A stretch of DNA of 64,000 nucleotides, taken from Candidatus Aminicenantes bacterium. Its GTDB lineage: Bacteria > Acidobacteriota > Aminicenantia > Aminicenantales > JAFGBC01. Every line of letters begins with the position of its first letter. Position 1 is the first letter of the stretch. A program made the position numbers and the translations under genes. Location: NCBI GenBank assembly GCA_963702005.1, contig OY969696.1, positions 1,088,001 to 1,152,000 of the forward strand. The letters run 5' to 3'. This document shows positions 442-60,651 of the stretch, piece by piece. The notes under the pieces were generated by a model, which ran no database searches, was not told where the DNA came from, and worked only from the letters and a program-made list of their open reading frames with translations.

Positions 442-471
442 ATTATCCGAAATACGGGAGGTCTTTGTCAA
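442..471 (-). promoter_or_regulatory. Putative sigma70 promoter TTGACA-N18-GATAAT for the TonB receptor; -35 supplied by repeat element end
   Basis: tgtcaa at 466-471 and attatc at 442-447 on the + strand. Confidence 0.5.
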
Positions 472-619
472 CCCCTCGACTCCCCGGCATGAATGCCGGG
501 GCTTGTTCGGGGTTAACCCTGAGCCGAGCTTCTCGTCCCCGCCTTTCAGGGGCGGCACACACGAACCGTTCCCGGTTCGTGCGTACTGCAAGGCTGGGTA
601 GCGTCGGCGAACGGGTCAA
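467..619 (-). mobile_element. TTGAC-bounded modular hairpin element, copy 1 (153 bp, non-autonomous)
   Basis: Reverse complement begins TTGACCCGTTCGCCGAC and ends GTCGAGGGGTTGAC, ends shared with other copies. Contains hairpins CCGCCCCTGAAAGGCGG, CCCCGGCATTCATGCCGGGG and a CAGTAC-stem module. Confidence 0.8.
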
Positions 620-627
620 GTCGGCCG

Positions 628-1776
628 TCAGCGGAGGCGTTCCCAGCCGACAAGGTATTTCAGGAGACGGCCCGCGTCGACGGTCACGCCCAAGCCCGGG
701 CCGGCCGGGACGGCGATGAATCCGTCGGAATCGAGCATGACCGGCGGGTCGGCGATATCTTCGCTGAAGTAGTTGCAGGTTTCCGACGTGTCGCCCGGGA
801 GGTTGAACTCCTCCACCGTCTGGAGATGGATGTTGACGGCGCGCCCGATCCCGGTCTCGTCCATCCCGCCCGACCAGACGCCGAGACCGTGATCCGCGGC
901 GAAGCGTGCGATCCGGATCGATTCCAGGAGCCCGCCGACGCGCCCCTGCTTGATGTTGATGATCCGGCAGGCGCCCAGGGCGACGGCCGCGGCCGCGTCG
1001 TCGAGGCCGTGTATGGATTCGTCGAGGCAGATCGGGGTGGCGATCTCCTTCTGGAGGATGGCGTGTTGATGGATGTCGTTATAGGACAGCGGTTGTTCGA
1101 TCATCATCAAGCCGAAGGCGTCCAGCCGCTTGAGGCGAGCGGCGTCCGCGAGCGTGTAGTCGCCGTTGGCGTCGACCATGAGCCGGAGGTCGGGAAAACG
1201 CTCCCGGACGGCGGCGACCCACTCGGCGTCCTGTCCTTTCTTGACCTTCATTTTGACCCGGTGGTATTTCTTGGCGACCGCCTCGGCGACGGCGCTTATC
1301 AGCTCGGCCTGCGTGTCTTTGAGCCCGATAGAGATGCCCGACATGATTTTGCGGGCCGGCCGGCCGAGAAGCTGATGGAGGGGGATTCCTTTTTTTAGCG
1401 CCGTCAGGATGGCCAGGCCGTTTTCAACCGTGGCCTTGGCCATTCCGTTGCCGCGGACGGGGCGGAACGCCAGGTCGAGGTCGCCGAAAGTCATCCCGGA
1501 CTCGATCGCGGGCAGCAGGAAATCCTTGATGATGGGACGGCAGGTCCCGGTCGTTTCCTGGAAATAATAGGGATCGGGGTCGGCGACGCACTCGCTCCAG
1601 GCGACGACGCCCTCCGATTCGAGGCGCATAAGGAGGGCTTCCTTGTGGGTCCAGACGTGGACGCTCGTCCCGAACGGAGTGACGAACGGCAGCCTGACCA
1701 CGACCAGGTCGATGTGGTCCGGGATCGCGACGGCCTGCTTCTCAAGAGACGGGATCGAGGACGGTACCCCGTTCAT
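628..1776 (-). CDS. menC: o-succinylbenzoate synthase / N-acyl(succinyl)amino acid racemase (enolase superfamily)
   Basis: KMK motif, metal ligands in DAN / EQP / DES, NIK, GGMDETG, PGDTS. Start at ATG 1776 after AAGGAGG. Confidence 0.8.
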   Translation of the reverse strand: MNGVPSSIPSLEKQAVAIPDHIDLVVVRLPFVTPFGTSVHVWTHKEALLMRLESEGVVAWSECVADPDPYYFQETTGTCRPIIKDFLLPAIESGMTFGDLDLAFRPVRGNGMAKATVENGLAILTALKKGIPLHQLLGRPARKIMSGISIGLKDTQAELISAVAEAVAKKYHRVKMKVKKGQDAEWVAAVRERFPDLRLMVDANGDYTLADAARLKRLDAFGLMMIEQPLSYNDIHQHAILQKEIATPICLDESIHGLDDAAAAVALGACRIINIKQGRVGGLLESIRIARFAADHGLGVWSGGMDETGIGRAVNIHLQTVEEFNLPGDTSETCNYFSEDIADPPVMLDSDGFIAVPAGPGLGVTVDAGRLLKYLVGWERLR

Positions 1777-1786
1777 GGGCTCCTCC

Positions 1787-3103
1787 TTAATAATAATACC
1801 CGCCCGGGCTGCCGGGGCCGCCGAATCCGCCGCCGAAGCGGGGGTTGACGACATTGCTATAGACGGACCCGAAGCTGTAGCTGAAGCCTACGGCCAGGAA
1901 ATAACTGTAGTCCGTGGCGAGCTCCTTGCGCCGCAGCAGGAGATCGTCGAGGCTGACCTCGCTCTTGCGGAGGGCCAGCTGGTCGTGGACGGCGGCGTAG
2001 CGTCCGTCCACGGTCAAGGCCAACCCCTTGAGAATCCTGAGCGACAGGCTGGCCGAGAGCCGAAGCCGGTTATAGCCGAAGTCGTGAAAATAGTGGGACC
2101 CCTCGGCCGAGATCTCGGCGTTCCCCCAGGGTTCGGTGAAGGACAGGGTCGCGGTCAGAATCTCGCTGAACACCGTTTGGGACAGCTTATCGTAGATGGT
2201 CTCCTCGAGATACTTGTTGTAGGAGACGGCGACGCGGTAGAGGAAGCGCAGCTGGCGCCGGGTCGCGTCGGAGTAGGGGAAGACGTCGTACTCAAGGGCC
2301 GGGGCGAGGCTGAACCCGGTCGCGATGTTGCTGTAGGTCGAATAGCTGAGGTTCGCGGTGCCGCCGGCCGACCAGTGATCGCCCAGGCTCCGGACGTAGA
2401 GCCCGTCCAACGACCGGGAGCGGGAGGAGCTTTCCTCTTTATAACCCTCGTAATCGAATTTGCTCTCGTCATAGCTCCCCGAGACTCCCAGGCGAAACTT
2501 GGAGGCGGGCGTCACCCGGCTGATGGAGACGTTGCCGTTGAGCGAGTTGTACTTGCGCGTCATTTCGCCGTTGAGCCGCCCGCGGGCGCTGAAGCTGAAC
2601 ACCCAAAAATCCCACTTGTCCACGACCGCCGTCGGCTTGAGGGTCCGTTCAGTGTTGAGGGACAGGATCCGGGAGATCGGCGTCCGGGCCGCGTAGGGGG
2701 CCAGCCCCAACTTCAGGATCTGGACCATGCCCTTCCGGATCTCGTCATCGGTTTCGGTGCGGTTCGAGTAGAACTTGAGCTCGTTGTTCAGGCTGGCGTA
2801 GCTTCCCAGCCCGATGAAGGCGATCGTGTATTCCCGGCCGCCGCCGCCGGTTCTCTGCTGGGTGATCAGGACGTGGACGTCGGCCTCGTTGCGGTCCCAG
2901 ACGTAGTTGACGAAGGTGATCTCGGTCCGGATATAGTCGATGTCGATGCGGCCGCCGTCGAGGAACACCTTGGGCGCGGCTTTCTTGAGGGCGTCCATTT
3001 CCTGGGCGTTGATTTCCTTCTTGACGTCGGTCGCGGCCGGAGAGGAGGTGGCCGCTGCTATGGAAAAAGCCGTAAGGAGGGCATAAACGGTTGCGCGCTT
3101 CAC
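1787..3103 (-). CDS. Exported hypothetical protein, probable outer-membrane beta-barrel
   Basis: Signal peptide after GTG 3103 (RBS AAGGAG), alternating aromatic beta strands, C-terminal VGFSYSFGSVYSNVVNPRF plus Gly-rich tail. Confidence 0.65.
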   Translation of the reverse strand: MKRATVYALLTAFSIAAATSSPAATDVKKEINAQEMDALKKAAPKVFLDGGRIDIDYIRTEITFVNYVWDRNEADVHVLITQQRTGGGGREYTIAFIGLGSYASLNNELKFYSNRTETDDEIRKGMVQILKLGLAPYAARTPISRILSLNTERTLKPTAVVDKWDFWVFSFSARGRLNGEMTRKYNSLNGNVSISRVTPASKFRLGVSGSYDESKFDYEGYKEESSSRSRSLDGLYVRSLGDHWSAGGTANLSYSTYSNIATGFSLAPALEYDVFPYSDATRRQLRFLYRVAVSYNKYLEETIYDKLSQTVFSEILTATLSFTEPWGNAEISAEGSHYFHDFGYNRLRLSASLSLRILKGLALTVDGRYAAVHDQLALRKSEVSLDDLLLRRKELATDYSYFLAVGFSYSFGSVYSNVVNPRFGGGFGGPGSPGGYYY

Positions 3104-3177
3104 TTTGTAACTCCTTGGAGTCATCCATTATAGACAGTTTCCCGCCGCCCGTCCATGCGCCGGAATTCAAAAAAAAC

Positions 3178-3206
3178 TTGAAATTATATGGGGGCTGTAA
3201 TATAAA
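3178..3206 (+). promoter_or_regulatory. Putative promoter of the polysaccharide operon, TTGAAA-N17-TATAAA
   Basis: Sequence match upstream of wzx. Confidence 0.4.
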
Positions 3207-3407
3207 GAAAAAGAGAAGGGAGAGGGAGAATTGTTGAAAGGTTCCAACGCGATAAGCTTTCCCGGACAACAAGCTGATTTTGGGGTATTGTCCGGCTTTT
3301 TTTGAGACTTTTTAGGGAACCGCAGCCTCCGACGGTAAACGGGCGTTGCAAGGCGCCCGATCGGGAGATCGTGTTTTTGTCGTTCGGGCCGATGTGTGCT
3401 TTTCTCT

Positions 3408-3421
3408 CCAAGGGCGGTAGC
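3408..3421 (+). promoter_or_regulatory. ops/JUMPstart-like element CCAAGGGCGGTAGC
   Basis: GGCGGTAG core (3413-3420) ends 9 nt upstream of the first polysaccharide gene, which lacks an obvious Shine-Dalgarno. Confidence 0.45.
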
Positions 3422-3429
3422 CTATCTTA

Positions 3430-4689
3430 ATGACAAAAAATCTATCTTTAAGAAACAATATATTTTGGGCATTGGTGGCGAACGGCATTAACGCCGCTTT
3501 CAGCTGGCTGATGCTCATGGCACTGACTAAGGCTGCAGATGTCAACGTCGTTGGGCTTTTCGCTTTAGCCCAAGCTGTAGCTTTGCCGATTCACACGTTT
3601 TTTACGTTCAAGCTTAGAGTTGTCCAATCAACGGACCATTTGGCCGAATTTTCTGATGATGAATATAGAAATTTCCGCATTTTTTCGGGAATTTTGAATT
3701 TCCTAGCAGCCGCTTTAATTACGCTGCTTCTTTATCGAGGAGGGACTCTCACGGTCATTTTAATTACGTCCCTTGGATACTCTTTCGTCATTTACAGGGA
3801 ATTTTATATATCGCTCCTACAAAAGCATGAAAGAAATGACTTGATTTCCTTCTCCAATTTAGTCCAAGGGTTGAGCGCCCTCGCTTTTTTACTCATCGGC
3901 TACTTAGTGACGAAAGATCTCAGGGGGGGGATAGTAGGTATTTTAGCGGCTCGAGCTTTTTTTACGATTACTGTCGACCGACGCCTCTCGGCTAAGTATG
4001 CTTCTTGGGGAAAAGTAACATGTTCCGACAGCGTTGGTAATCGGGAATATCGAAAAAGACTTTTAAAATTATTCCATGTGGGCCTTCCGATGGGAGGAGT
4101 AGCTCTGTTAGGAACCCTTTTTACCAGTATCCCGAGACTCGTTCTTGATAAAGCCGTGGATAGGTATAGTGTCGGTATCTATGCGGCGCTCGCTTCTTTG
4201 ATTGTCGTGATGAATCTTTTTGTCAATTCGCTTGGGCAATCAATAGCGCCGAGATTAGCGCGGATTTATCATGAAAACCGCAGCGATTTCCAAAAAAAAA
4301 TAATCGGCCTCTTATCGGCAAGTATAATCTTTATCATCGGTTGGATCGCCGTTTGTTCCCTTTTCGGGAGAACGTTGCTCTCCGTGATATTTAAGCCGGA
4401 ATACGCAGACTATAATCCGACTTTTATCAAATTGATGGTTGCCGGCGGTATACTTGCCCTTTTCTCAATTATGATCATCGCCGTTTCCGCTCAGCGATCT
4501 TTTAAAATCCAGTTTGGCATCTATCTCGTTAGCACAATAGTTTTGCTCATGACGTCGATTGTATTAATTCCTAGGTATAAAATCGACGGCGCGGTTTATT
4601 CCTTCGCTCTATGCAATCTATCCGGGCTTATCTTAAGTTCTGTCGTTTTTATTCGGAATATGAGACAAGAAGTCGTGGGTCATGTATAG
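3430..4689 (+). CDS. wzx: Polysaccharide flippase (Wzx)
   Basis: About 12 hydrophobic segments, LRNNIFW...N start, PRLVLD..VGIYAA, first gene of the EPS cluster. Confidence 0.85.
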   Translation: MTKNLSLRNNIFWALVANGINAAFSWLMLMALTKAADVNVVGLFALAQAVALPIHTFFTFKLRVVQSTDHLAEFSDDEYRNFRIFSGILNFLAAALITLLLYRGGTLTVILITSLGYSFVIYREFYISLLQKHERNDLISFSNLVQGLSALAFLLIGYLVTKDLRGGIVGILAARAFFTITVDRRLSAKYASWGKVTCSDSVGNREYRKRLLKLFHVGLPMGGVALLGTLFTSIPRLVLDKAVDRYSVGIYAALASLIVVMNLFVNSLGQSIAPRLARIYHENRSDFQKKIIGLLSASIIFIIGWIAVCSLFGRTLLSVIFKPEYADYNPTFIKLMVAGGILALFSIMIIAVSAQRSFKIQFGIYLVSTIVLLMTSIVLIPRYKIDGAVYSFALCNLSGLILSSVVFIRNMRQEVVGHV

Positions 4690-5230
4690 CGATATCTGCG
4701 AGGATTATCGGGCTTATTCAAAAAATAATGCTTCCTTTCTAAGAATTGTACTAGCTTTTCTACAAATTGCCGGCTTCCGAGCAAGCGTATTGTACCGACT
4801 TGGCCACCGGCATTGGGTGAAAAAGCACAGGCTGCGCGCGGCTGTTTATACGCGGATGATCCGTGGTTCATGCCACATGGATATCGAACTGGGTGCAAGG
4901 ATCGGTCCCGGTATCTGTTTCCCTCACACGTGGGGGATTGTCATCGGGGGCAAATGCATAGTCGGAAAAAATTGCCGAATCATGCAGGGAGTAACTTTGG
5001 GGGGAAGCCTGGGTAGAAAGAGACCAAGTGGACAAAGCCAGCCCGTCATAGGTGATCTTGTACACATCGGTCCGGGTGCTAAAGTGATGGGCCCGATTAA
5101 TGTGGGGGATAGGGCGAAAATTGGGCCAAATTCTGTCGTTCTAGAAAACGTTCCGCCGGGAATTTCAGTATTTGGGATTCCAGCGAAAAACATTTTTTCA
5201 TTATGTACAGAAATAGAGGAAGCTGAGTGA
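4682..5230 (+). CDS. Serine O-acetyltransferase-like (CysE/hexapeptide) polysaccharide acetyltransferase
   Basis: ARIGPGICFPH..GIVIG..IMQGVTLG..PVIGD.VHIGPGAKV hexapeptide repeats, GIPAK. Confidence 0.85.
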   Translation: MYSDICEDYRAYSKNNASFLRIVLAFLQIAGFRASVLYRLGHRHWVKKHRLRAAVYTRMIRGSCHMDIELGARIGPGICFPHTWGIVIGGKCIVGKNCRIMQGVTLGGSLGRKRPSGQSQPVIGDLVHIGPGAKVMGPINVGDRAKIGPNSVVLENVPPGISVFGIPAKNIFSLCTEIEEAE

Positions 5231-5374
5231 AGGGCGGATTTTATATGGCGGAGAAACGCATTTTTTTCATTTGCTGGGTTCGATTAAATCTCCCACGTTA
5301 GGCAACCTTAATAATTCAAGAGCATTGAAGAGCATGCTTAGGAAGGTGCATATCCTAGCTTCAGGAGAATCTGA

Positions 5375-6793
5375 TTGAGGAGATTGTTTTCAAGAAAAAT
5401 ATATCTTCCTCTCTGTTTTATAATAACTCTGCTTGGTTTCTTGTCTTATAAAGGTACATATATAGATGATGCGAGCTTGGCTATGCCGTTATTCTGTGCC
5501 ATGCTCCTTATTTTTTTCCTCTTAGGCGAAAAGCTCTTGATCGAACGCCAAGGAAGGGATTTTTTAGAACCGGATTTAGTTTTTTTCATAATATTCTTTA
5601 TTTTTCATTTCTCCTATATTGCTCTTCTTTACCTTGGGCTAGCTGCCTATGATAAAGAAGTATTTTATAATCCTGATATTGTGCCAAGAGCGCTCTATTT
5701 TTGTATATTTTGTCTAATTGGCTTTCTTGTCGGATATGGCCGACCCGTAGGTTTTCCCCGGAAGTTGGAGCCGAAAGATATACGATATTTCGTAGAAAAG
5801 GCCTTTTTCTTTTCGAAAATATTGCTAATTCTTTGTTTACTTTTCTTTTGGATCCCGCTCCTCATCACAGGGAATGAGGTGTTTTATGATTATAAGTTGC
5901 TCATCGCCGTTGGCGAAGCATCCAGCTTAGGAAAACTGTTTTGGCTCGGTCAATATCTTGGTGTCGCGGCTATCGCTCTCTTTTGTGTTTCCGGCGGGAT
6001 CTTATATAGAAAATGCATGAAGGGACCTTTTAAATATTTAGCAATATTTTATATAGGGAGCTTCTTGATCATCGGCGATAGGGGCGGTTTCGTTTATATG
6101 GCTATCACTCCTATGTTGGTCTTTAACCTTTTTCAGACGAAGCTTTCTGGCAAGAAACTCACAGCAATCTTACTTCTATTCTTATTGATAATTCCGATCA
6201 TAGCTTTTGCTAGAACTAAATCCATCTTCAATCCCATCCAAATGGTAAGAACCTATTCCGAGAACGACCCAGAATCTTTCGTGGTGAGTTCCTTAAGCGA
6301 GCTTGGTTCTACATTGAAAACTGTAGTCATTGCAATGTACTTAATACCGGAGAGGTATAATTATTGGAATGGAAGTTCCTATCTTTATTCTTTTTCTTTA
6401 ATTCTGCCTAAAATATCTGGAAAAAGATCCTCATCTGGATCGCCCGGAGCTTGGCTTACTGAGATGACGTTTGGTGACCTTAGTAAAACTCACGGGCGAG
6501 GTGGATCTATTGCTATGGAGGCTTATCAAAATTTTGGATTTATCGTAGGAATCCTATTTTTTCTCTTTTTGGGTTATACACTAAAAAAAACATATGTTTA
6601 CTTTCTGCGAAACACGACTATCTTAGCCGGCGTCCTCTATTTTTCGGCAATGGCATGCTTCGCTTTGTGGATACGGAATACCAGCGCTGTAACATTCCGG
6701 ACAATCGCATGGTCATTTCTAATAGTCTATTTTTTTCGGAAGATTGTTCTTATTGGATACAAGAGAACCACTTTACGTCGATCAGCAAAATGA
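5375..6793 (+). CDS. wzy: Oligosaccharide repeat-unit polymerase (Wzy)
   Basis: Multi-TM protein, GDRG motif, EAYQNFGFIVG motif, located in EPS cluster. Confidence 0.75.
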   Translation: MRRLFSRKIYLPLCFIITLLGFLSYKGTYIDDASLAMPLFCAMLLIFFLLGEKLLIERQGRDFLEPDLVFFIIFFIFHFSYIALLYLGLAAYDKEVFYNPDIVPRALYFCIFCLIGFLVGYGRPVGFPRKLEPKDIRYFVEKAFFFSKILLILCLLFFWIPLLITGNEVFYDYKLLIAVGEASSLGKLFWLGQYLGVAAIALFCVSGGILYRKCMKGPFKYLAIFYIGSFLIIGDRGGFVYMAITPMLVFNLFQTKLSGKKLTAILLLFLLIIPIIAFARTKSIFNPIQMVRTYSENDPESFVVSSLSELGSTLKTVVIAMYLIPERYNYWNGSSYLYSFSLILPKISGKRSSSGSPGAWLTEMTFGDLSKTHGRGGSIAMEAYQNFGFIVGILFFLFLGYTLKKTYVYFLRNTTILAGVLYFSAMACFALWIRNTSAVTFRTIAWSFLIVYFFRKIVLIGYKRTTLRRSAK

Positions 6794-7974
6794 AAGCTGC
6801 TTTTTTTGACTTCACGATCAATTTCGGGGGAGCTCCTCAGGGAACAGTATCGCTTGCCGGCCGGCTAGGGAGTTTCTCTGAAATTCATATAATTGATGTC
6901 TATGGATCCTGTGCCGAGTATATCCGTAAGATCAGGCAATCAAAACTGCTCCTCCATATCTTATACCCCGAAGGAAAAAGAGTTTTTATCGGCAACCAAG
7001 GCAAGCCGCTTAATAGGATTATTTCCATAATTGCGCAATTACATGATTTTTGGAAGATTCGAAAAAGACTGAAAAAAACTCTCAACGAAATACACCCAGA
7101 TCTTGTCTGGGTCAACAATGAAAAATCACTCGTCTTTCTATTGGGGCCGCTTCTTCTTTCAAAAATTCCAATAGTGCTTTATTATCGCGGGTGGGGGACG
7201 CGGGATCAAATTGGCTTCTTCTTCAGGTTCCTAATTAAATCCAGGGTGACTAGCGTCGCAGTTCATTCTAGAGAGACGGCAGCTAAGCTCATCTCTTACG
7301 GAATATCAGAGAGTAAAATATTTATTACGCCCAATGCGGTTAACATTTCAATAACTAGAGCAGAGGCGATTAAAAATCCTCCGGACATTCCCGGACTCGA
7401 TAAGCCCTTAAAAATATTGCTGCCCGCGGCTCGGCCGATTCTCGAAAAGGGACATCTTGTCGCCGTTAAGGCCCTAAGGAGGCTTCTCGATAAGGGTCTC
7501 GACCCCATTCTTTGGCTTCCTGGAATCATTCCGGTCGGCGTAAACGATGATTTTCTGGCTGGGCTTAAAGCTGAGATCTCGCACCTAGGGCTGGAGCCGT
7601 ATGTCCATTTTATTGGCTGGCGGGATGATATTCAGAAGATCATTGCCTGGTCTGATGTCGTTATCCTCCCGAGTCACACGGAAGGATTCCCTCGAGTGAT
7701 AATTGAAGCGATGCTTCTAGATGTTCCAGTCTGTGCGACGCCTGTCGGGGGAATTCCTGAAGCCATTACGGAAGGGAAGACAGGTTTTCTTATCGATATA
7801 GATGATGACAAGATGCTTGCAGATCGCATCGATCTCGTAACACGAGACAAAGACCTTAGAAAGCGTATTATTAGGGAGGCAAGAGCTATGGCCTCTGTCT
7901 TATTCAATCCCGATAAACAAGCGGAAGCAATCATGGATTATTTCAATAGGATTGCCTTTAGCAATGGCAGATGA
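6790..7974 (+). CDS. Glycosyltransferase family 4
   Basis: EKGH, LPSHTEGFPRVIIEAM, VGGIPEAI motifs; ATG 6790 overlaps the wzy stop. Confidence 0.9.
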   Translation: MKAAFFDFTINFGGAPQGTVSLAGRLGSFSEIHIIDVYGSCAEYIRKIRQSKLLLHILYPEGKRVFIGNQGKPLNRIISIIAQLHDFWKIRKRLKKTLNEIHPDLVWVNNEKSLVFLLGPLLLSKIPIVLYYRGWGTRDQIGFFFRFLIKSRVTSVAVHSRETAAKLISYGISESKIFITPNAVNISITRAEAIKNPPDIPGLDKPLKILLPAARPILEKGHLVAVKALRRLLDKGLDPILWLPGIIPVGVNDDFLAGLKAEISHLGLEPYVHFIGWRDDIQKIIAWSDVVILPSHTEGFPRVIIEAMLLDVPVCATPVGGIPEAITEGKTGFLIDIDDDKMLADRIDLVTRDKDLRKRIIREARAMASVLFNPDKQAEAIMDYFNRIAFSNGR

Positions 7975-8869
7975 TAAGGCATCATCTCCACTTGTATCGA
8001 TTATGATGCCGGCGTATAATGCGCAGAAAACTATTGCTTTTGCCTTGGCTTCCCTGTTAGCGCAGACCTATCCAAACTGGGAATGCATCGTCGTTGATGA
8101 TGGTTCTATAGACGATACGATAAAGAAGGTTCAGTCTTTCCAAGATCCAAGAATTCATGTTGTAAAACTCGGCAAGAATCAGGGCAGGGGCGTTGCGCGG
8201 CAAAGGGCTCTCGAAGAGGTGCGAGGCGAGTTCATAGGAATGCTCGATGCTGATGATTGGATTTATCCAGACAAATTAGAGAAACAAGTAAGGGTGTTAT
8301 TAGATAATAAAGATGTTTCTCTTGTCAGTAGCGGCATGGCTATAATTGATTCTAGTAATAATCTTTGTGGCATTAGATGTTTAGGGAACGGGAAAAAACA
8401 GGTATATTCAAAACCGGGCAGAGTCCCGGTGGCTCATGCCCCTTCTATCTTTAGAAAAAAGGAGGTAGGGAGTATTTGTTATGATTTCCGCCTTAAGCTT
8501 TCTCAGGACGTTGATTTTTTACGGAACTACTTATTGGGACGGAAGTATTTGGTATTACCCTGCATAGGTTATGCTTACAGGGAAGTAGGACGTTCAAGAT
8601 TACAAAGGACGATAAAAGGATATTTTTTTAATATTTACGGCCTTACCAAATTTATTACTATGAGGCCGTTCTTGATTGGCATCGAGATAGTGAAAGAGTT
8701 ATGGAAAATATTGCTGACTGTTCTCATCAGCAGCCTTGGTCTTTTTAATTATCTTATTCAAAAGAGGTCTCGTCGGCCCTTCAATGTAGAAGAAAGTGAA
8801 TTCGGAATAGCAAGAAATAATATTGAAAAGCTAATTGAACGATATCATTTTGTAGATAACCAACGATAA
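7964..8869 (+). CDS. Glycosyltransferase family 2
   Basis: LVSIMMPAYN, VVDDGS.DDT, LDADD, QDVDF. Confidence 0.9.
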   Translation: MADDKASSPLVSIMMPAYNAQKTIAFALASLLAQTYPNWECIVVDDGSIDDTIKKVQSFQDPRIHVVKLGKNQGRGVARQRALEEVRGEFIGMLDADDWIYPDKLEKQVRVLLDNKDVSLVSSGMAIIDSSNNLCGIRCLGNGKKQVYSKPGRVPVAHAPSIFRKKEVGSICYDFRLKLSQDVDFLRNYLLGRKYLVLPCIGYAYREVGRSRLQRTIKGYFFNIYGLTKFITMRPFLIGIEIVKELWKILLTVLISSLGLFNYLIQKRSRRPFNVEESEFGIARNNIEKLIERYHFVDNQR

Positions 8870-9004
8870 ATAAATTTCTGAATATTTCGTTATCGATACT
8901 TGATAAATGAAATTTTAGGTTGTTTTTAGAACGGTGATTATAATTAAACAAATAAAATATTCCGTTTTTTGAGCGGCAATTAATAAATAGTTGAAAAATG
9001 GGCC

Positions 9005-9853
9005 ATGAATAGACTAACTGCAAGACAACATTGGGATAAAATATGGAGCCGAAATGATATAAATAAAATATTAGCTGCTCAGAAAAGAAGATCAAGAATA
9101 AATAAAAAATGGCCTTTATTTTATTCATATTCGGATTATTTATTAGAAAATGTTGTTTTAGAAAAAATGTTACGTACTTTGAAAGGCGGCAGAGTATTGG
9201 AAGTGGGCAGTTCTCCTGGAACGTTTCTTGTGATGCTGAATAAGAGATTTTCATTAGTACCATACGGAGTCGAATATTCAGAGTCTGGTGTTACCCTAAA
9301 TAAAAAAATATTCTGTATCAATGGACTAAACCCAGAAAATATTATTTATGCGGATTTTTTTGCGGATGATTTTCATCTGAGATATAAAGAGAGTTTTGAT
9401 GTTGTAGTTTCTCGTGGTTTTATCGAGCATTTTACTAATACTAATCTTGTAATTGACATGCACCTTCATGTGCTTAAGGAAGGTGGAATTCTTATTGTGA
9501 GTATACCCAATTTGCATGTAAATAGCATTTACAGAAGATGGGCTAATCATTATGATCGTGAACGCCTAGTTACACATAATTTAGACATCATGTCTGAAGA
9601 TAAATTTTGCTGCATATTCAATAGGAGCGATTTGAAAATGTTGTTTTCTGGCTATTTTGGTACCTGCAGATTAAGTAACCTTGGAACAGCTAATTCAATA
9701 GGAACTAGAATAGTTATTTCTGCATGCCATAGAATCCAGAGATTTATTGATCCAATACTTCATTTGCTCTTTAGAAACAAAGGTTTTGAAGGGCCCAAAT
9801 TTAGCCCTATATTGCTATATGTTGGCCGTAAAAATAATAATATGGATAGATGA
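9005..9853 (+). CDS. Class I SAM-dependent methyltransferase
   Basis: RVLEVGSSPG, GVEYS, FDVVVSRGFIEH, LKEGGILIVSIPN. Confidence 0.85.
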   Translation: MNRLTARQHWDKIWSRNDINKILAAQKRRSRINKKWPLFYSYSDYLLENVVLEKMLRTLKGGRVLEVGSSPGTFLVMLNKRFSLVPYGVEYSESGVTLNKKIFCINGLNPENIIYADFFADDFHLRYKESFDVVVSRGFIEHFTNTNLVIDMHLHVLKEGGILIVSIPNLHVNSIYRRWANHYDRERLVTHNLDIMSEDKFCCIFNRSDLKMLFSGYFGTCRLSNLGTANSIGTRIVISACHRIQRFIDPILHLLFRNKGFEGPKFSPILLYVGRKNNNMDR

Positions 9854-9869
9854 TAAGCATATTTTCTTG

Positions 9870-10287
9870 AAGAATTGGCTAATTTTAGGAGCTTTACATC
9901 CACCTGAACATGATGGCAAGGGACTTGCTTTGAATAAAGCTTATAAAGAGCCTTTAGAGTTTTAGGACGCGCGTTTCTCGGAAGAAGGCGCATGCAATTG
10001 CGAATGAGTACTCCTCGGACGCCACCGGTGGAGATTTTAATCTAATGATAACGGTCTAAGTACCAGGAGATTCGTTTCGGACCGATATGATAGTTTCTTC
10101 GAAGATAGAGGATCTTTTCCTCGATTGCTTGAGGGACTCTTCTTTTTAGATTTTGTGGGCATGGACTGGAATTAATGAGCGCCGTCTCTCCGAATGCTGC
10201 ATAAGCCCTTTTCCATTGATAATATATTTCCTTTGAGAATCCGAAGTATCTACAGGTTTTTGAGCAGTTTCTTTTGGCTATAGTCAT
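9870..10287 (-). pseudogene. IS481-family transposase remnant
   Basis: SKTCRYFGFSKEIYYQWKRAY HTH ... ILYLRRNYHIGPKRISWYLDRYH*IKISTGGVRGVLIR ... HHVQVDVK. In-frame TAG at 10042-10044; truncated just after the first DDE aspartate. Confidence 0.8.
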
Positions 10288-10348
10288 CTTAAGCTCCGAT
10301 TGATAAGGAAATGGCCATATCTGTCAACCGAAGTCAAGATTTTCAGAC

Positions 10349-11545
10349 ATGAGAGTCCTTCACGTAGTTAAAACAACGGACGGCGCCGCATGGGCTGCCG
10401 CTCAAGCCGCTGTGTTGTCGCATCTAGGAATCGAAGTGCATGTCGCATTACCTTTGGATAAGGGGATAGCAGTTGTTCGTTGGAAAGTTGCGGGCGCAAA
10501 GATTCATATTATTGATTGTAGCTTACCCGTTCTTTTTCCACAGCGCATTCCTTCTAGAGCAAAGACGATAAGGGAACTTATTTCGTCTGTCAAACCGGAT
10601 ATTATTCATAGTCATTTCGTTACGACGACAATTATGCTAAGGATTGCTTTGGGACGAAATCACTACATCCCTAGGATCTTTCAAGTCCCAGGCCCGCTAC
10701 ATTTAGAATATTTTATTCCTCGTTCTATAGAAATTAGTTTAGCCGGAACTGCTGACTGGTGGGTTCCCTCGAGCCGATTCGCTCTTCAACTTTATCGTAG
10801 CCACGGCGTTCCAAATGATCGTCTTTTCTTGTCTTATTATGGAGTGGATATTGACGCTTTAAAAAAATCTATTAGTAATAAGGAAATCAGGAAACACATC
10901 GATAGTTCACATAATATGGTTGTGGGAAATGTCAATTATATGTATCCGCCGAAATACTTATTAGGTCAGACTTTCGGGATCAAGCGACATGAGGATGTAA
11001 TAGATGCGCTAAGCATTGTTCTTAGTAAAAGAACTGACGTTATGGGCTTATTAGTTGGGGGGCAATGGGGAAAGGGCACGGCTTATGAAAAGGGGTTAAA
11101 ACAGCGAGCTATGCGAGTAGGTAACGGCCGGATTCTCATGCCAGGAAGGGTTAGCAACGATGAGGCTTTAGATTGGTGGAAGCAATTTACCTGCGTTGTA
11201 CACGTGCCGATATCAGAAAACTGTGGAGGGGTTGTGGAACCGTTGATATATGGGATTCCGGTAATAGCAAGCTATGTCGGCGGCTTGCCGGAAGTAATTA
11301 TTAATGGTGTCACTGGCTGGAGCGTTCCTCCGAAAAAGCCAGTTAAACTCGCAGAAACAATTTTATATGTCTTAGATAATTTATCTGAAGCTAGACATCG
11401 GGCAGACCGAGGGCGAGAACTTGTGAGCATCATGTTCGATGTCAATAGAACCGGCGAGGAAATAGCTAATTTATATTATCATATCTTATGCGGCTCATCC
11501 CTTCCAGAGATGTTAAATTCACACAATCAAATAAGGCATGTATAA
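10349..11545 (+). CDS. Glycosyltransferase family 4
   Basis: PDIIHSH, SENCGGVVEPL, GIPVIASYVGGLPEVI. Confidence 0.85.
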   Translation: MRVLHVVKTTDGAAWAAAQAAVLSHLGIEVHVALPLDKGIAVVRWKVAGAKIHIIDCSLPVLFPQRIPSRAKTIRELISSVKPDIIHSHFVTTTIMLRIALGRNHYIPRIFQVPGPLHLEYFIPRSIEISLAGTADWWVPSSRFALQLYRSHGVPNDRLFLSYYGVDIDALKKSISNKEIRKHIDSSHNMVVGNVNYMYPPKYLLGQTFGIKRHEDVIDALSIVLSKRTDVMGLLVGGQWGKGTAYEKGLKQRAMRVGNGRILMPGRVSNDEALDWWKQFTCVVHVPISENCGGVVEPLIYGIPVIASYVGGLPEVIINGVTGWSVPPKKPVKLAETILYVLDNLSEARHRADRGRELVSIMFDVNRTGEEIANLYYHILCGSSLPEMLNSHNQIRHV

Positions 11546-12179
11546 TATTCTTATAAAAAAATGGATTGATAATTTCGTGTGTTTTTTGTGTTTTATTTTG
11601 TTCTCTCCACTATTCTACATAGCGGCCATTGTCGTTATTTTATTCATTGGCAGGCCGATCATTTTCACCCAGGACAGGCCGGGAAAAGGAGGAAAGCCGT
11701 TCAGATTGTATAAATTCCGTACCATGACCAATGAAAGAGATAAAAACGGGCGTTTATTACCTGACGAAAACCGGATTAATAAAATAGGCAAAGCGATTCG
11801 TTCGACTAGCCTCGATGAATTGCTGGAGCTGATCAACGTGATGAAGGGCGAGATGAGCCTAATCGGGCCGAGGCCGTTACTTATGGAATATCTCCCACTC
11901 TATACAAAAGAGCAATTCCGTCGGCATGAGGTTTTGCCGGGGATCACGGGATTGGCTCAAGTATCGGGGCGAAACGAGCTTTCCTGGGAGGAAAAGTTTA
12001 AGCTAGATGTCTGGTACGTCGATCATCAGAGCTTTTGGTTAGATATGAAGATTCTGTTCCGTAGTTTCGTCTATGTCATATCCAGAAAAGGCATTGGAGC
12101 TAATGGACACGCGACAATGCCGAAGTTCCAGGGAACAATTGAAGGAAGCCCATTTCCCAATAAATTTTCTGAGAGTTGA
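11538..12179 (+). CDS. Undecaprenyl-phosphate sugar phosphotransferase (PglC/EpsL-like)
   Basis: YKFRTM, RSTSLDEL, GEMSLIGPRPLL, PGITGLAQVSGRN, LDVWYVDH. Confidence 0.9.
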   Translation: MYNILIKKWIDNFVCFLCFILFSPLFYIAAIVVILFIGRPIIFTQDRPGKGGKPFRLYKFRTMTNERDKNGRLLPDENRINKIGKAIRSTSLDELLELINVMKGEMSLIGPRPLLMEYLPLYTKEQFRRHEVLPGITGLAQVSGRNELSWEEKFKLDVWYVDHQSFWLDMKILFRSFVYVISRKGIGANGHATMPKFQGTIEGSPFPNKFSES

Positions 12180-12183
12180 GATC

Positions 12184-26946: not shown

Positions 26947-27029
26947 TTGACCCGTTCGCCGACGCCACCCAGCCTTGCAGTACTCAGACTAAGCCGAAAA
27001 CGGCTTAGTCTGGGTGTCGATGATTTGAC
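26947..27029 (+). mobile_element. TTGAC-bounded hairpin element, copy 2 (83 bp)
   Basis: TTGACCCGTTCGCCGACGCCACCCAGCCTTGCAGTAC-stem(CAGACTAAGCCG AAAA CGGCTTAGTCTG)-GGTGTCGATGATTTGAC; near-identical to 60569-60651. Confidence 0.8.
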
Positions 27030-27054
27030 AAGCCGGCTCGCGCCGCGGTATTCT
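27025..27054 (+). promoter_or_regulatory. Promoter TTGACA-N18-TATTCT for beta-propeller gene 1; -35 coincides with element end
   Basis: Same architecture as the promoters of paralogs 2 and 3. Confidence 0.6.
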
Positions 27055-31918: not shown

Positions 31919-32030
31919 TTGACCCGTTCGCCGACGCCAAGCCCCGCCTTTCAAGGCGGGGATGAGAGCGAGGCTCAGGGTTAATCATGAACAAGCCCCG
32001 GCCTTCAGGCCGGGGAGTCGATGATTTGAC
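31919..32030 (+). mobile_element. TTGAC-bounded hairpin element, copy 3 (112 bp incl. both TTGAC)
   Basis: Shared ends; hairpins CCCCGCCTT-TC-AAGGCGGGG and CCCCGGCC-TTCA-GGCCGGGG; absent from the paralogous site at 29434. Confidence 0.85.
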
Positions 32031-47111: not shown

Positions 47112-47305
47112 CTGAAGCTCCACGTGAAAGCCTGTGGAGCTTCAGCCCCGAACAAGCCCAGCCCTGCAGTACTCATACTAAGCCGTTTCCGGCTTAGTAT
47201 GGGTGCCGGCATTCATGCACTCATGAACCAGAAACGGTTCATGAGTACTGGCGCTCCAACGAGCATTAGTCCGTGGAGCTTCGGCCGGGGTGTCGAGGGG
47301 TTGAC
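47112..47305 (+). mobile_element. Composite copy 4 of the hairpin element (right half with two nested modules and an extra left hairpin)
   Basis: CCCCGAACAAGCC...CCGGCATTCATGC...CGGGGTGTCGAGGGGTTGAC matches copy 1 once the inserts at 47159-47205 and 47219-47285 are removed. Confidence 0.75.
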
Positions 47306-47371
47306 AACGTCCGCGGCCGGCCTCATCCTAAGAAGGAATTTTCGGAATCCCGCGAGGAGAAAGGAGTGCCG

Positions 47372-51477: not shown

Positions 51478-51539
51478 TCGAAAGGGGTATTTCATTCGAG
51501 TCCCGACCGAAGACGGGTTGAGCATCCGGCCGACGAATT

Positions 51540-52874: not shown

Positions 52875-52938
52875 GATCCTCTTTTCTTGCCCCCATTCTA
52901 ATGCGATACCGTCCCTTGTTGCAAGAGGGGGATAAAGG

Positions 52939-52968
52939 TTGACGGGCGTCCTCGGCCGGCGATATAGT
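52939..52968 (+). promoter_or_regulatory. Promoter TTGACG-N18-TATAGT, probably leaderless transcript
   Basis: In-frame GTG at 52975 is separated from the -10 by 6 nt, with no SD. Confidence 0.55.
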
Positions 52969-52974
52969 TTGGGC

Positions 52975-55900: not shown

Positions 55901-56214
55901 ATTTCGGCGCCTTCCCGCGGCAGGAGCTGTTCACCGCCAAGGAAGGCCGGCGCGTCCTGCGGGAGTTCACCGTCTGCGACGCGGCCGGACGCGCCTTCCG
56001 GGTGGACCGGATCGTCCTTGACGGGGAACGGGCCACCGTCATCGATTTCAAGTCGGGGGACGAGGCCGACCCTTCCCGCCATGCCGAAAAAAAGCGGGCC
56101 GACCGGGATCAAGTCCGCGCCTACCAAAAGCTCGTCGAAGGGGCGATGCCGGGAACCAAGGCGACCGGTCTGCTGGCCTACATCGATCAAGGAGCTTGGG
56201 AGGACGTCGAGTGA
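52975..56214 (+). CDS. addA: UvrD-like helicase with C-terminal nuclease (AddA/RecB-like)
   Basis: ASAGSGKT, AITFTRNAA, LIDEFQDT, VGD.KQAIYGFR, SIHKAKGL, YVALTRA, DRIV..IDFKSG. Confidence 0.85.
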   Translation: MPSRTIKPAPGGTGRAPRVLTPEKALRFPEFVLLKASAGSGKTHALSLRFVQLLLADRVRTLAPADLRNILAITFTRNAAREMKDRILDWLKQCYRGDRAKSEEVLDIVSLGRDELPGRAERTIAAILSRYTDFQVETIDSFMAAVFKASAVDLGYSPDFEIVLDPSELVEYAFYRYLRRVSGRSGEGAVFRVLLEDILANLPQDAAFSWDPTELVLKKLVGLHGALAARPEELIVEDNREGRSRLQGAIAGAADDLAGRIADSGLEPNPRSQWRTRIEPAVRKARFADLVGASFKTLPVKTARGGGAAGAGEAVERSWRRLEGLVNEYKFLFARDFFHPYLTAYRAFAGSLDRVKRERGTVFLDDINKQLAGYIDRGIVPDIYFRLGDRIAHFLIDEFQDTSPVQWLNLRPLVENSLAQNGSLFIVGDTKQAIYGFRDADYRIMRWLEAGQDSFPSVEVEVRELAQSRRCHEAVLDFVKGIFLDKASRHENYAGIASLSGLTDFRQEVLDRDRRSGHVEYIVLEKSASGDEAEDEDAGGAVRPGGGRPDIGEFPERFEIQDRVRDLRARGYAYADIAILTYKNDNVVRVASWLNEVGIPFIPFSSLDIRKRGVIQEVLSLLLFLDSPPDDLSFASFLLGRVLAAKTVRDGPAFEPGHWHRFLFACRRAKESPLYVAFRKRYPDLWDKAFERLFKSVGYYPLYDLVTLAFRVFDVFALFPEEEAALVKLLEAIKDFEGKGRNDLREFLAYAGQGEGDASAWTIDVPSEIDAVKVMSIHKAKGLGFPAVILLLYGERFMPPEFFLGRERDGVRVYKINKDLALADERLKGIYEEAKTRESVNRLNTLYVALTRARSELHVIGVKGRTAGYPFDLLGTEGFASSGSRPPAPKAVPRPEPPAAETLRFNEAPEPTARPSDEPGWGRGVRRGELIHEILAGLEFLKGGWEADIGRIIEGLPLAAPDRPTAEEAGRVLVRYFGAFPRQELFTAKEGRRVLREFTVCDAAGRAFRVDRIVLDGERATVIDFKSGDEADPSRHAEKKRADRDQVRAYQKLVEGAMPGTKATGLLAYIDQGAWEDVE

Positions 56215-59090: not shown

Positions 59091-59109
59091 TCCGGGAGCG
59101 GAACCGTCC

Positions 59110-60447
59110 TCATCGCGACGGAGCCGGCCTGAACCCGGAGTCGGGAAGGACAATGCGCTGGGCGCGGCCTTTTTGGAACGCGTCCAAACGGAGGAGGTAA
59201 AGCCCGATGCCGGCCGCTCCTTGCATGAGGCCCGTCTGAGCAATCAGCAAATCAGGGCGAACCCGGTGCTCGGCCTGGACCCATTTCATCCGGCCGTCCT
59301 CGACGGTCGCCGCGGCCAGCAACTTGTCCGTGACGCGATCGCAAAAAGCCCGGTCGGCGGGGTCGCGGCCGACTTCAAACAGGCTTAGGAAAAAATCGGC
59401 GACCCCGGCCAGGCCGCAGCAGAGCCCGGCGTTGTTCCAGAACCCGGCTGTCTGCGTCTCGGGAATACCGCTGGCCGTGATGCCGCGGGCGCTTTTACGG
59501 ACCCAATCCATCCAGGACGGATCTTTCGCGGCGAGCGACAGCCGGTAGAAGAGCTGGGCCGTTCCGACCGGGCCGTGGCACCAGCCCAAATAATAAAGAT
59601 CTTTGCCGTCCGGTTCGTGGTGGAAGATGAGGCAGACGTCCCCTTCGGTTTTGGCGACGGAGAGGAGATAGCGCGCCCCGGCCAAGGCCGCGTCGAGGAA
59701 CTCTTTTTGTCCCGTCCGCTCATAGAGGCGGGCCAGGAAAAAAGCGATCCCGGCCGTTCCGTGGGAGAAGTTCGGCATCAGGCGGGGGAATTCGGGATCC
59801 ATGGCCCAGTCCAGCCCTCCGCCCTTGGGCCGGCCCACTTCGACCAAACGACGCCCGGCCTTGATCGCGAGGTCGATTCCATTCGGGTCGCCGAGCTCTT
59901 CGGCGGCGTAGAGGAGGAACAACCCGGTCCCGGCGGTCCCGCTGATGATGTCCGTGACAGGACCCCATTGGACGCCCGCTCCGGCCGGAGCGGCCCCGGA
60001 CCGGATCTTGTCCAAGGCCCGCAGGAATCCGCGCCGATATCGTTCATCCCCGCTAGATTTAAAGACCTCTTCGAGAGTGAACCCGATCCCGGCCACGCCT
60101 TCATAGAGGCCGGCGCCCGTCTCGTCCTCGAGCCGGGCTAAAAGGTCGTCGGCGCCGGCCTTGGCTTTATCGAGAGCCGCCGGATCGCCCGTCGCCGCGT
60201 GGAGCTCGAGGAAGAATAGGATAACGCCCGGCGTGCCCGCGTAGAGAGAGGCGCCGACGGACTTCGGATCGGCCGGGTCCGATGGCCAAGCCAGGCCCTT
60301 TTCCGTCTTGACCTGGACGGAGTCCAGCCAGCGGGCCGCTTTAAGGGCGGCGTCCAGCGCGCGGGTTTCGGCCGCGGATAGGGCGGAGCCCACGACCGAA
60401 AAGAAAATCGCGGAGAGGATGATCTTGACAAGCGGCTTCGACGGCAT
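59110..60447 (-). CDS. Exported lanthionine synthetase C-like (LanCL) protein
   Basis: LY.G..G repeats, NFSHGTAG, GWCHGPVG, GLCCGLAG, GLMQGAAG; signal peptide ALSA|AE; RBS GGAGGT. Confidence 0.85.
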   Translation of the reverse strand: MPSKPLVKIILSAIFFSVVGSALSAAETRALDAALKAARWLDSVQVKTEKGLAWPSDPADPKSVGASLYAGTPGVILFFLELHAATGDPAALDKAKAGADDLLARLEDETGAGLYEGVAGIGFTLEEVFKSSGDERYRRGFLRALDKIRSGAAPAGAGVQWGPVTDIISGTAGTGLFLLYAAEELGDPNGIDLAIKAGRRLVEVGRPKGGGLDWAMDPEFPRLMPNFSHGTAGIAFFLARLYERTGQKEFLDAALAGARYLLSVAKTEGDVCLIFHHEPDGKDLYYLGWCHGPVGTAQLFYRLSLAAKDPSWMDWVRKSARGITASGIPETQTAGFWNNAGLCCGLAGVADFFLSLFEVGRDPADRAFCDRVTDKLLAAATVEDGRMKWVQAEHRVRPDLLIAQTGLMQGAAGIGLYLLRLDAFQKGRAQRIVLPDSGFRPAPSR

Positions 60448-60568
60448 TGCGATTACCTCCGGCCTGGCCCGGCGTCCCCCGGCGAGACCGAGCCTGGGAA
60501 AGATCCGTCTCATGGGGAATATTTAATACCAACGGTCTCGGCAGATCAATAGGGGAACCGGGCCGGGC

Positions 60569-60651
60569 TTGACCCGTTCGCCGATGCTACCCAGCCTTGC
60601 AGTACTCATACTAAGCCGAAAACGGCTTAGTATGGGTGTCGAGGGCTTGAC
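60569..60651 (+). mobile_element. TTGAC-bounded hairpin element, copy 5 (83 bp)
   Basis: TTGACCCGTTCGCCGATGCTACCCAGCCTTGCAGTAC-stem(CATACTAAGCCG AAAA CGGCTTAGTATG)-GGTGTCGAGGGCTTGAC. Confidence 0.8.

Follow-up and report, generated by a model that had tools for sequence, protein, structure and literature searches.

We analysed 64,000 nucleotides of the genome of a Candidatus Aminicenantes bacterium (GenBank assembly GCA_963702005.1, contig OY969696.1), a single contig of 4,309,361 bp with 60.4% G+C. This stretch, 1,088,001-1,152,000, is the window referred to below, and coordinates within it are counted from its first base. It carries non-coding hairpin elements that end in TTGAC, the core of the sigma-70 -35 box. 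A first-pass annotation of the window had described five such elements, and all five were present on inspection of the sequence, together with the -10-like hexamers that it had placed 17-18 bp downstream of four of them:

467 to 619, minus strand: complete composite element with left end and right end, 153 bp; left end at 619, right TTGAC at 471-467.
442 to 447, minus strand: -10-like GATAAT in flanking host DNA, 18-bp spacer from the TTGACA of element 467-619.
26947 to 27029, plus strand: single-hairpin derivative, 83 bp, consisting of the left end, CAGCCTTGCAGT, a hairpin with a 13-bp stem, and GTCGATGATTTGAC.
27049 to 27054, plus strand: -10-like TATTCT, 18-bp spacer from the TTGACA of element 26947-27029.
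31919 to 32030, plus strand: master-type element of the TGAT subfamily, 112 bp.
About 47112 to 47305, plus strand: 5'-truncated composite element; left end absent, several nested hairpin modules, intact right end GTCGAGGGGTTGAC; family region 1135114-1135305 on the contig.
47324 to 47329, plus strand: weak -10-like CATCCT, 17-bp spacer from the TTGACA of element 47112-47305.
60569 to 60651, plus strand: single-hairpin derivative, 83 bp, with right end GTCGAGGGCTTGAC.
60670 to 60675, plus strand: -10-like TAAAAC, 17-bp spacer from the TTGACT of element 60569-60651.

The common ends proposed for these elements were recovered as well. Elements 467-619, 26947, 31919 and 60569 start with TTGACCCGTTCGCCGA(C/T)GC, the fifth being without it, and all five have the right end GTCGA-NNNN-TTGAC, with NNNN being GGGG, TGAT, TGAT, GGGG and GGGC. 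Element 467-619 contains a nested ACGAACCGGGAACGGTTCGT hairpin and a CCGCCCC..GGCGGGG hairpin in addition to its right-end hairpin CCCCGGCATTCATGCCGGGG. In element 31919-32030, the left hairpin CCCCGCCTTTCAAGGCGGGG and the right hairpin CCCCGGCCTTCAGGCCGGGG each have CAAG on their 5' side, 10 nt separate the right hairpin from TTGAC, and no -10 box is found at 16-18 bp beyond the right TTGAC. The window was said to be free of a cognate transposase, which agrees with the absence of insertion sequences (ISs) among its crude gene calls and with the location of all Y1 transposase matches outside 1088001-1152000. A search of the 64-kb window against Rfam 15 at gathering score returned 0 matches. 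Between 27068 and 34447, the window contains three tandem genes of ~745-780 aa, whose paralogy is visible as internal sequence matches; two of them have a TTGAC element upstream (26947, 31919).

Genome-wide, these elements belong to a large family. The left-end 16-mer has 82 exact occurrences, 117 when one mismatch is allowed and 151 when two are allowed, the last set containing some chance matches in genes. The right-end pattern GTCGANNNNTTGAC occurs 125 times (NNNN being GGGG in 40, TGAT in 28, GGGT in 17 and AGGG in 11), and a reversed-pattern control gave 1 match in the source genome; such counts far exceed chance. A right end lies within 450 bp of the left end in 94 of the 151 cases, with element lengths of 68-361 bp. 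BLAST searches with these 94 paired elements delimited 165 family regions with a total of 20,599 bp, of which 95 are bordered by TTGAC on the left, 122 on the right and 80 on both sides. The family is mosaic: the core is interrupted or partly replaced by additional hairpin modules, hairpin loops are seen in two orientations (GGAAAC and GTTTCC), members are found inside other members, and adjoining tandem copies have one TTGAC in common. The 112-bp sequence of element 31919-32030 exists in six identical copies, so that the family must have been active recently and an enzyme for it should exist.

The family extends to related genomes. In a comparison sample of 201 genomes of the same order, where the left 16-mer was counted at up to one mismatch, most genomes have 0-3 matches (reversed control 0-1). 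High counts were obtained for G001, which is of the same genus (166), G106 (86), G005 (24), G100 (18), G167 (18), G025 (14), G159 (14) and G143 (10), and the genomes with high element counts belong to two families of the order. Outside the source genome the usual form is a 113-bp master copy, and some forms are only 58 bp. When one genome per species was scanned for an exact 19-mer, at least 99 stretches matched; among the matches listed, records with multiple hits bear Candidatus Aminicenantes or Aminicenantia titles, plus one uncultured Eubacteriales, and other taxa have single matches at chance level.

The two borders of the elements differ in their constancy. Using internal sequence as anchor, the left pentamer (155 anchors) was TTGAC in 97, CTGAC in 7, ATGAC in 6, GTGAC in 4, GTCAC in 3, CTCAC in 2 and TTAAC in 2, with singletons making up the rest, of which many are chance anchors; some 25% of the left pentamers differ from TTGAC. 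The right pentamer was TTGAC in 99 cases and a near variant in six single ones, i.e. ~105 true ends within a loose set of 173 anchors. Conservation is absent upstream of left position -5 and past right +1. Since the left pentamer varies and the right one is nearly invariant, a target duplication does not explain them, which upholds the earlier view of TTGAC as a fixed border (left TTGAC 97 plus NTGAC 17, right TTGAC 99 of ~105): the left pentamer would be the host target and the right pentamer a part of the element. No terminal inverted repeats are readable in the paired element sequences, whose ends are asymmetric. A classical miniature inverted-repeat transposable element (MITE) moved by a DDE transposase was rejected because of these asymmetric ends and because the flanking pentamers are constant rather than site-specific.

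Sites with and without an element could be compared between related genomes. At the site of element 26947-27029, G001 reads ...TATAGCC TTGAC AAGGCGG..., with one TTGAC and no element. In the reverse comparison, 35 complete elements were taken from loci of other metagenome-assembled genomes, and both flanks were located in the source genome for 13, of which 5 were empty, 3 filled and 5 rearranged. The pentamers at the empty sites were TTGAT (with TATGCT 17 bp later), CTGAC, TGAAC and TACGC (not TTGAC-like), the fifth (L052) being unreadable owing to poor alignment. A single TTGAC-like pentamer was thus found in four of five clear cases of empty orthologous sites, in keeping with the target that had been proposed. 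The three sites filled in both genomes hold different members (83 versus 153, 75 versus 265 and 200 versus 208 bp, the last pair with different modules), which indicates repeated use of the same TTGAC or fast internal replacement, and is compatible with precise excision followed by re-invasion. The G001 loci corresponding to window elements 47112 and 60569 are rearranged beside the site and offer no clean comparison. A complete 113-bp element was also found within a gene remnant of the IS91 type (Y2_Tnp; L174, G001:C306, ~1313-1426), in its 5' part, where the annotated open reading frame (ORF) start is the reverse complement of the inserted element. We are highly confident that these are mobile, TTGAC-targeting, non-coding elements that regenerate the -35 box.

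These observations can be set against the idea of an immobile regulatory module upstream of promoters, or a structured RNA gene, in either case multiplied by duplication and maintained by selection. The high conservation of the ends, compensatory changes in the stems and a fixed position relative to promoters would be expected of such a module, but presence and absence with exact boundaries between related genomes already contradict it. Orthologous sites occupied by different members, copies within copies, within the IS91-like gene remnant and in tandem, hairpin loops in both orientations, and the lack of an Rfam match in the window also speak against an immobile module, which we consider hardly tenable.

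The right ends have the geometry of promoters. Of 121 right ends, 59 have T as the base after TTGAC, 52 have A, 10 have C and none has G; G and C together make up 80% of the next bases after other TTGAC sites genome-wide. TANNNT starts at offsets 17, 18 and 19 in 8, 31 and 26 copies, respectively, and at every other offset from 0 to 44 in 0-5. The first-pass annotation had predicted an enrichment of -10 boxes beyond the right end, and we indeed found TANNNT at a 16-18-bp spacer in 62 of the 121, compared with 6.1% of 9,323 TTGAC sites; the share is 25.8% among 1,498 other non-coding TTGAC sites. Outside gene calls, 79 of 93 right ends face a co-oriented gene, with a median of 55 bp to its start. 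The gene calls are crude longest ORFs (3,162 genes, 86.6% coding) with over-extended starts, one of them inside element 60569, and for that reason the 28 of 121 right ends that fall in coding sequence are an upper bound. The same pattern is seen at loci of other genera, where the next base is T in 16, A in 12, C in 1 and G in 1, and TANNNT follows in 12 of 30, with a peak at offset 18.

It had been suggested that the elements home to promoters. They do sit at promoters, but nothing beyond the target sequence seems to direct them there. TANNNT is found at 41.8% of other non-coding TTGAC(A/T) sites (n = 736), at 50.2% of those facing a gene (n = 564) and at 56.7% of those within 300 bp of a gene (n = 467), compared with 63.3% beyond the 79 elements that face a gene. 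By this measure, the insertion sites resemble a draw from the ordinary TTGAC(A/T) sites of non-coding DNA, which are mostly promoters. Given the -10 share near such ordinary sites, a target equal to the -35 core together with the loss of genic insertions is sufficient, and a separate sensing of promoters is unnecessary.

The orientation of the elements is linked to replication. With the origin at ~0.55 Mb and the terminus at ~2.7 Mb, as placed by cumulative GC skew, the top strand, i.e. the one on which TTGAC stands 5' of the left end, is on the template of the lagging strand in 99 of 121 copies (p = 2e-10), and in 96-101 under alternative choices of origin and terminus. The corresponding share is 54% for TTGACW-TANNNT promoters facing a gene and 53% for the 3,162 gene calls. 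All 11 copies of a resident IS200 element obey the same strand rule, and a bias towards the lagging-strand template is described as a signature of IS200/IS605 transposition (PMC5027513).

The 113-bp master copy allowed us to compare the architecture of the family with that of IS608. It is composed of TTGAC, CCGTTCGCCGACGCTAAG, CCCCGCCTT-TC-AAGGCGGGG, ACAAGAAGCGAGGCTCAGGGTTAACCCCGAACAAG, CCCCGGCAT-TC-ATGCCGGGG, ACTCGAGGGG and TTGAC: 18 nt are followed by the left hairpin (9-bp stem CCCCGCCTT, 2-nt loop), a central spacer, the guide CAAG, the right hairpin (CCCCGGCAT, loop TC), 10 nt and TTGAC, and each end has a subterminal hairpin with a 9-bp stem. In the description of IS608, the cleavage spacing is 19 nt on the left and 10 nt on the right, and the guide is formed by the four bases 5' of the hairpin foot (PMC3201880). 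There, the left guide (GL) AAAG goes with the left cleavage site (CL) TTAC and the right guide (GR) GAAT with the right cleavage site (CR) TCAA, with A+16:T-3 and A+17:T-4 paired (PMC5934647). A rule derived from both of these published pairs (guide base 1 pairs with -3, base 2 with -4 and base 4 with -1, base 3 being A) predicts the guide CAAG for TGAC.

The sequence of most right ends, and that of part of the left ends, agrees with this prediction. The linker between right hairpin and TTGAC is 10 nt in 35 copies, 8 nt in one and 11 nt in one, and 6, 7, 9, 12, 13 or 14 nt in none; among the 35 ends with a clean hairpin and a 10-nt linker, the guide is CAAG in 30, the other five having TAAG (2), CAAA (2) or CAGG (1). 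A clean hairpin is present at 40 left ends; the spacing is 18 nt at 18 of these, 15 of them with the guide CAAG. The agreement is one of sequence with a rule derived from IS608. As a positive control, the resident IS200 has the right guide AATG and the end TTAC, matching the rule, and its left guide GCTG would fit as well if the conserved GCAC that stands before all 11 copies is the target.

The single-strand folds of the elements beat those of shuffled sequences (z -3.5 to -4.4). We aligned 43 unique copies of the master type, drawn from several genomes, and read covariation by eye: both tip hairpins have compensatory changes from A-T to C-G and, in one copy, from C-G to T-A. The outer right stem, made of the linker and the block 5' of the guide, covaries between the two main subfamilies (CCCC/GGGG versus TCAT/ATGA); RNAalifold recovered part of the structure only. 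These features point to selection on the element structure.

Taken as a whole, the family is probably a non-autonomous single-strand transposon of the IS200/IS605 type, resembling the palindrome-associated transposable elements (PATEs), in which the target and the right cleavage site are both the -35 core. The involvement of an HUH enzyme of the IS200/IS605 kind, already raised by the first-pass annotation, is backed by the IS608-like spacing (18 and 10 nt), by the CAAG guide predicted for TGAC and by the replication-linked orientation; its idea of a non-autonomous element stands in so far as target and right site are both TTGAC, but a matching Y1 partner was not found. A Y1 HUH transposase acting in trans would cut the top strand after the left TTGAC of the host and after the right TTGAC of the element, and the excised single-strand circle would be inserted into the lagging-strand template, 3' of a further (T)TGAC. 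Genic insertions would be lost and the surviving copies would sit at promoters, where the right TTGAC and the next host base (A or T) would restore the -35 box at its original distance from the -10, presumably with transcription starting from there, and the DNA upstream of the -35 would be displaced by 58-400 bp. Because target and right end are both the -35 core, each insertion would restore the promoter that it hits. Secondary hairpin modules may later enter or replace parts of resident copies, which would give rise to the mosaic forms.

A different enzyme could be at work, be it a site-specific recombinase, an IS110-type bridge-RNA system or an IS91-type transposase, with TTGAC as crossover core in the target and in a circular donor, and with recognition of the conserved termini CCGTTCGCCGAxGC (left) and GTCGAxxxx (right). 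These termini are the sole parts kept across all subfamilies, single-hairpin forms included; TTGAC stands on both sides, once only between tandem copies; a cognate Y1 gene was not found; and genes of the IS110 family and of the IS91 type are present in these genomes. However, the conservation of the target ends at TTGAC plus one base, which is short for bridge-RNA or recombinase sites, and a variable left and constant right pentamer fit better with a left target and a right element part. The resident IS110 targets another site, CATGA/GG inside hairpin modules (slashes mark insertion points here and below), and coincidence would have to account for both the CAAG guide and the linker of exactly 10 nt. 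Matches to the Y2/IS91 type (PF04986) were obtained in the source genome, G001, G106 and G100 and not in G005 or G167; the two ORFs read (L171, L174) are N-terminally truncated, one of them being interrupted by an inserted element, which tells against this type. We find this whole group of enzymes rather unlikely.

Several observations weigh against a single-strand transposon of the IS200/IS605 type. The 83-bp, 58-bp and 68-75-bp derivatives have one hairpin and so are without the hairpin at each end that belongs to the IS608 paradigm, and such forms have multiplied (14 copies of the 83-bp form), some of them carrying an unrelated hairpin. The spacing is 16 nt in 22 of the 40 left ends, with GCTA (16), GCCA (4) or similar in place of the guide, a misfit to the code. 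Each of the 14 positions that follow the left TTGAC is conserved to at least 95%, even between families of the order, which is unpredicted by IS608 biology. Folding has no strand asymmetry (top strand better in 45 of 89, p = 0.88), and because both strands fold equally well, structure alone tells neither the active strand nor whether selection acts on DNA or RNA. Finally, the 25 nt to the left of the element have 36.8% A+T (n = 38), compared with 45.4% in 308 control promoters (p = 0.001) and 47.2% in random non-coding DNA. As the left flank is GC-rich relative to ordinary TTGACW promoters, the insertion sites are not a random sample of promoters: either insertions survive where the upstream DNA is unimportant, or some promoters were created or improved by insertion.

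The second of these options leads to a view in which the element supplies TTGAC where the -35 is poor or absent and copies are kept if a -10-like box lies 17-18 bp downstream, promoters being created or strengthened in the process. Four of the five clear empty sites are not exact TTGAC, the same holds for roughly one quarter of left pentamers, the composition of the left flank is coding-like (37% versus 45% A+T upstream of promoters), and in 13 of 102 left ends the TGA doubles as stop codon of the upstream gene call. Yet the genomes compared differ by 10-25% in these regions, and single mismatches at empty sites may post-date the insertion. Moreover, one empty site is exact TTGACA and another is TTGATA with its TATGCT 17 bp on, plausibly a promoter already, and the -10 share beyond elements facing a gene (63%, n = 79) is near that of ordinary TTGACW sites (50-57%), as predicted by insertion at existing sites. 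We therefore regard such a birth of promoters as unlikely, though worth keeping in mind.

The search for the enzyme likewise tells against the IS200/IS605-type reading. The source genome has 14 Y1 matches, i.e. 11 copies of an IS200 TnpA (147-150 aa) and three genes resembling those of REP-associated tyrosine transposases (RAYTs), where REP stands for repetitive extragenic palindromic sequence. A Y1 gene flanked by the same ends, of the kind that the first-pass annotation proposed to look for, was not found: none of the 14 matches in the source genome and none of 19 in five high-copy relatives is bordered by ends of the TTGAC element, an incidental copy occurring in L140. The ends of the resident IS200 differ from those of the elements, with hairpins of like shape (9-bp stem starting CCCCG, 2-nt loop). 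Its 147-aa TnpA is present in 36 of the 201 genomes, including G017 with six copies and zero elements, and was not found in G106 (86 left ends), G005, G100, G167 or G025; the different ends and the absent co-occurrence across the 201 genomes speak against it as the partner. A 312-aa RAYT-like protein, present in 115 of the 201 genomes and uncorrelated with element counts, was rejected as partner for its failed co-occurrence and for the different repeat that flanks its gene. TnpB (PF07282) was not found in the source genome, and a left end followed by unique DNA (L083), a candidate autonomous copy, contains no transposase gene.

A related possibility is a REP- or REPIN-like system kept by a single-copy, domesticated RAYT-type Y1 enzyme instead of an IS-borne TnpA (REPINs being REP doublets). 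The elements are intergenic, hairpin-rich and modular, much like bacterial interspersed mosaic elements (BIMEs), three RAYT-like genes are present here and two conserved types occur in all five high-copy relatives. Nevertheless, each RAYT-like gene of the source genome is flanked by its own, different repeat, that of the 312-aa protein by GTGACAAAGTGTAGGTTTGACCCC on both sides and inverted, and none is bordered by TTGAC elements. The 312-aa type is found mostly in genomes free of the family, and the elements have two different ends in fixed orientation and are not inverted doublets. A RAYT-type enzyme thus seems improbable to us, and the preferred reading remains that of a non-autonomous IS200/IS605-type element.

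A further idea is, in our opinion, doubtful: an orphan single-strand element, moved by a host-encoded or novel HUH-type activity, might have evolved a target identical with both its own end and the -35 core and so cycle through promoters at almost no cost, and the set could form a regulon-like group under one DNA- or cruciform-binding factor. About one in six non-coding TTGAC(A/T)-N16-18-TANNNT sites is element-borne (62 versus 308 others), and these element-borne promoter-type sites have in common the hairpins and a conserved module of 14-19 nt directly upstream of the -35.

The same genome contains other mobile elements and repeats. One of them is a REPIN-like family of its own, made up of inverted doublets of GTGACAAAGTGTAGGTTTGACCCC, with 67 matches on G000:C1, the listed positions often being inverted pairs; placed inverted around the gene of the 312-aa RAYT-like protein, these repeats form a classical REP-RAYT pair. 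The outer end of this repeat also contains TTGACCC. The resident IS200-type element is ~0.62-0.72 kb long and has 11 copies on G000:C1, preceded by GCAC (mostly TTGCAC) and ending in ...GGGGATCTTTAC. At least five copies lie inside the loop of another palindromic repeat (REP-2), and close homologues with 80-88% identity are scattered through the order. Examples on G000:C1 are:

650020/650036 and 2073918/2073958, and both sides of 713758-714693: GTGACAAAGTGTAGGTTTGACCCC repeats.
1259787-1260470, 717111-717750 and 2579862-2580481: IS200-type element.

A 1.39-kb element of the IS110 family (Pfam DEDD_Tnp_IS110 and Transposase_20) was found in five copies on G000:C1. In four of the five, the insertion is at ...CATGA/GGTAACATGATAGCG inside ACTCAT...ATGAGT modules of TTGAC elements, the fifth (near 989025) having a different left flank; this IS takes the hairpins of a different mobile family as its target. 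Two further IS types lie directly upstream of -35-like boxes on G000:C1, with the junctions CGGA/TTGACAG, CAGG/TTGACAG, CGGG/TTGTCC, AGGG/GTTGAC, GGAAGT/TTTGACA and GCCAACC/TTGACA, of which AGGG/GTTGAC falls inside the right end of a TTGAC element. In this genome, insertion close to promoters may be a more general theme. In addition, a repeat of the form ...CTTCGGGGACAGGCGCTCCAACGCCTGCAAAG.GTAGATCCCACGGACGTAAGTCCGTGGAGCTTCAG, also present in G001, occurs both as a stand-alone sequence and nested in TTGAC elements, including 47112-47305 of the window. The copies of these features on G000:C1 are:

2353923-2355313, 3583722-3585056 and 4076324-4077720, with variants near 3156011 and 989025: IS110-family element.
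628933-630299, 1389992-1391357, 2924096-2925457 and 4080812-4082181, also 2991462-2992832 and 4134541-4135910: copies of the two IS types, type 1 being 1.37 kb long with a 410-aa protein without Pfam match and a 4-bp duplication, and type 2 having a 14-15-bp duplication and a protein of 431 aa that matches rve_3 weakly.
76355-76411, 1301697-1301750 and 3577344-3577400: stand-alone CTTCGGGGACAGGCGCTCCAACGCCTGCAAAG.GTAGATCCCACGGACGTAAGTCCGTGGAGCTTCAG repeat.

In the window itself, 4001-12000 has a G+C content of 0.40-0.43, compared with ~0.60 elsewhere, and ORFs with low codon-usage scores, and may be a foreign island.

The TTGAC family is of interest for several reasons. It would be an example of an insertion that rebuilds the promoter it enters, i.e. 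of a selfish element that is harmless by mechanism and not by luck, and a natural case in which the guide-to-target code of IS608 appears to be set to a functional motif of the host. Its copies provide many natural before-and-after pairs for gauging the importance of the sequence upstream of the -35, and the derivatives that have spread with one hairpin probe how far the two-hairpin model of the transpososome holds. The missing transposase is a concrete question raised by the family. In the literature searched, we found no element of the single-strand kind that has the -35 core as its target as well as its right cleavage site and so accumulates at promoters and restores them, although supplementary files might list such motifs, and nothing on the promoter or mobile-element biology of this lineage, which is known from metagenomes only.

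Mobile elements that contribute part of a promoter are known. Correia elements of Neisseria supply an outward-facing -35, and cases of ISs and MITEs with an outward-facing -35 at the element end have reportedly been reviewed. As in the TTGAC family, the promoter is a hybrid, with its -35 from the end of the element and its -10 from host DNA; in those cases, however, it arises by chance from the landing site of a DDE element, whereas the -35 of the TTGAC family is both target and element end, so that insertion by its very mechanism would re-establish the promoter geometry at most copies.

PATEs are said to have been described in Haloquadratum walsbyi. As far as the accounts of them go, they are gene-less like the TTGAC family, with left and right subterminal hairpins, without inverted repeats or target duplication, and they insert beside a fixed motif of 4-5 nt, attain high copy numbers and presumably move in trans. 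Unlike them, the TTGAC family has a target motif that is at the same time its right cleavage motif and the sigma-70 -35 core, hence its build-up at promoters; it is heavily remodelled by nested hairpin modules, and neither a partner IS with matching ends nor TnpB was found for it. Movement of PATEs in trans has been documented in Geobacillus stearothermophilus (PMC10055086).

REP, BIME and REPIN sequences with their RAYTs share with the TTGAC family the short intergenic palindromes, the high copy number, the mosaic structure and the link to a Y1 HUH enzyme, but in the account cited here the REPs flank the RAYT gene and have no fixed TTGAC borders or -35 position (PMC3333891). IS608 of Helicobacter pylori differs in that its left and right sites are not the same (TTAC and TCAA) and in that it is described as encoding tnpA and tnpB, while the right cleavage site of the TTGAC family is also paired in a long outer stem and many of its left ends are off-code. 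In other respects the family resembles IS608 as described: cleavage sites set off from the hairpins by 18-19 nt (left, on the 5' side) and by 10 nt (right, on the 3' side), a tetranucleotide 5' of the hairpin foot that is a candidate guide under a pairing rule giving CAAG for TGAC, insertion 3' of the target, and an orientation tied to the lagging-strand template (PMC5027513).

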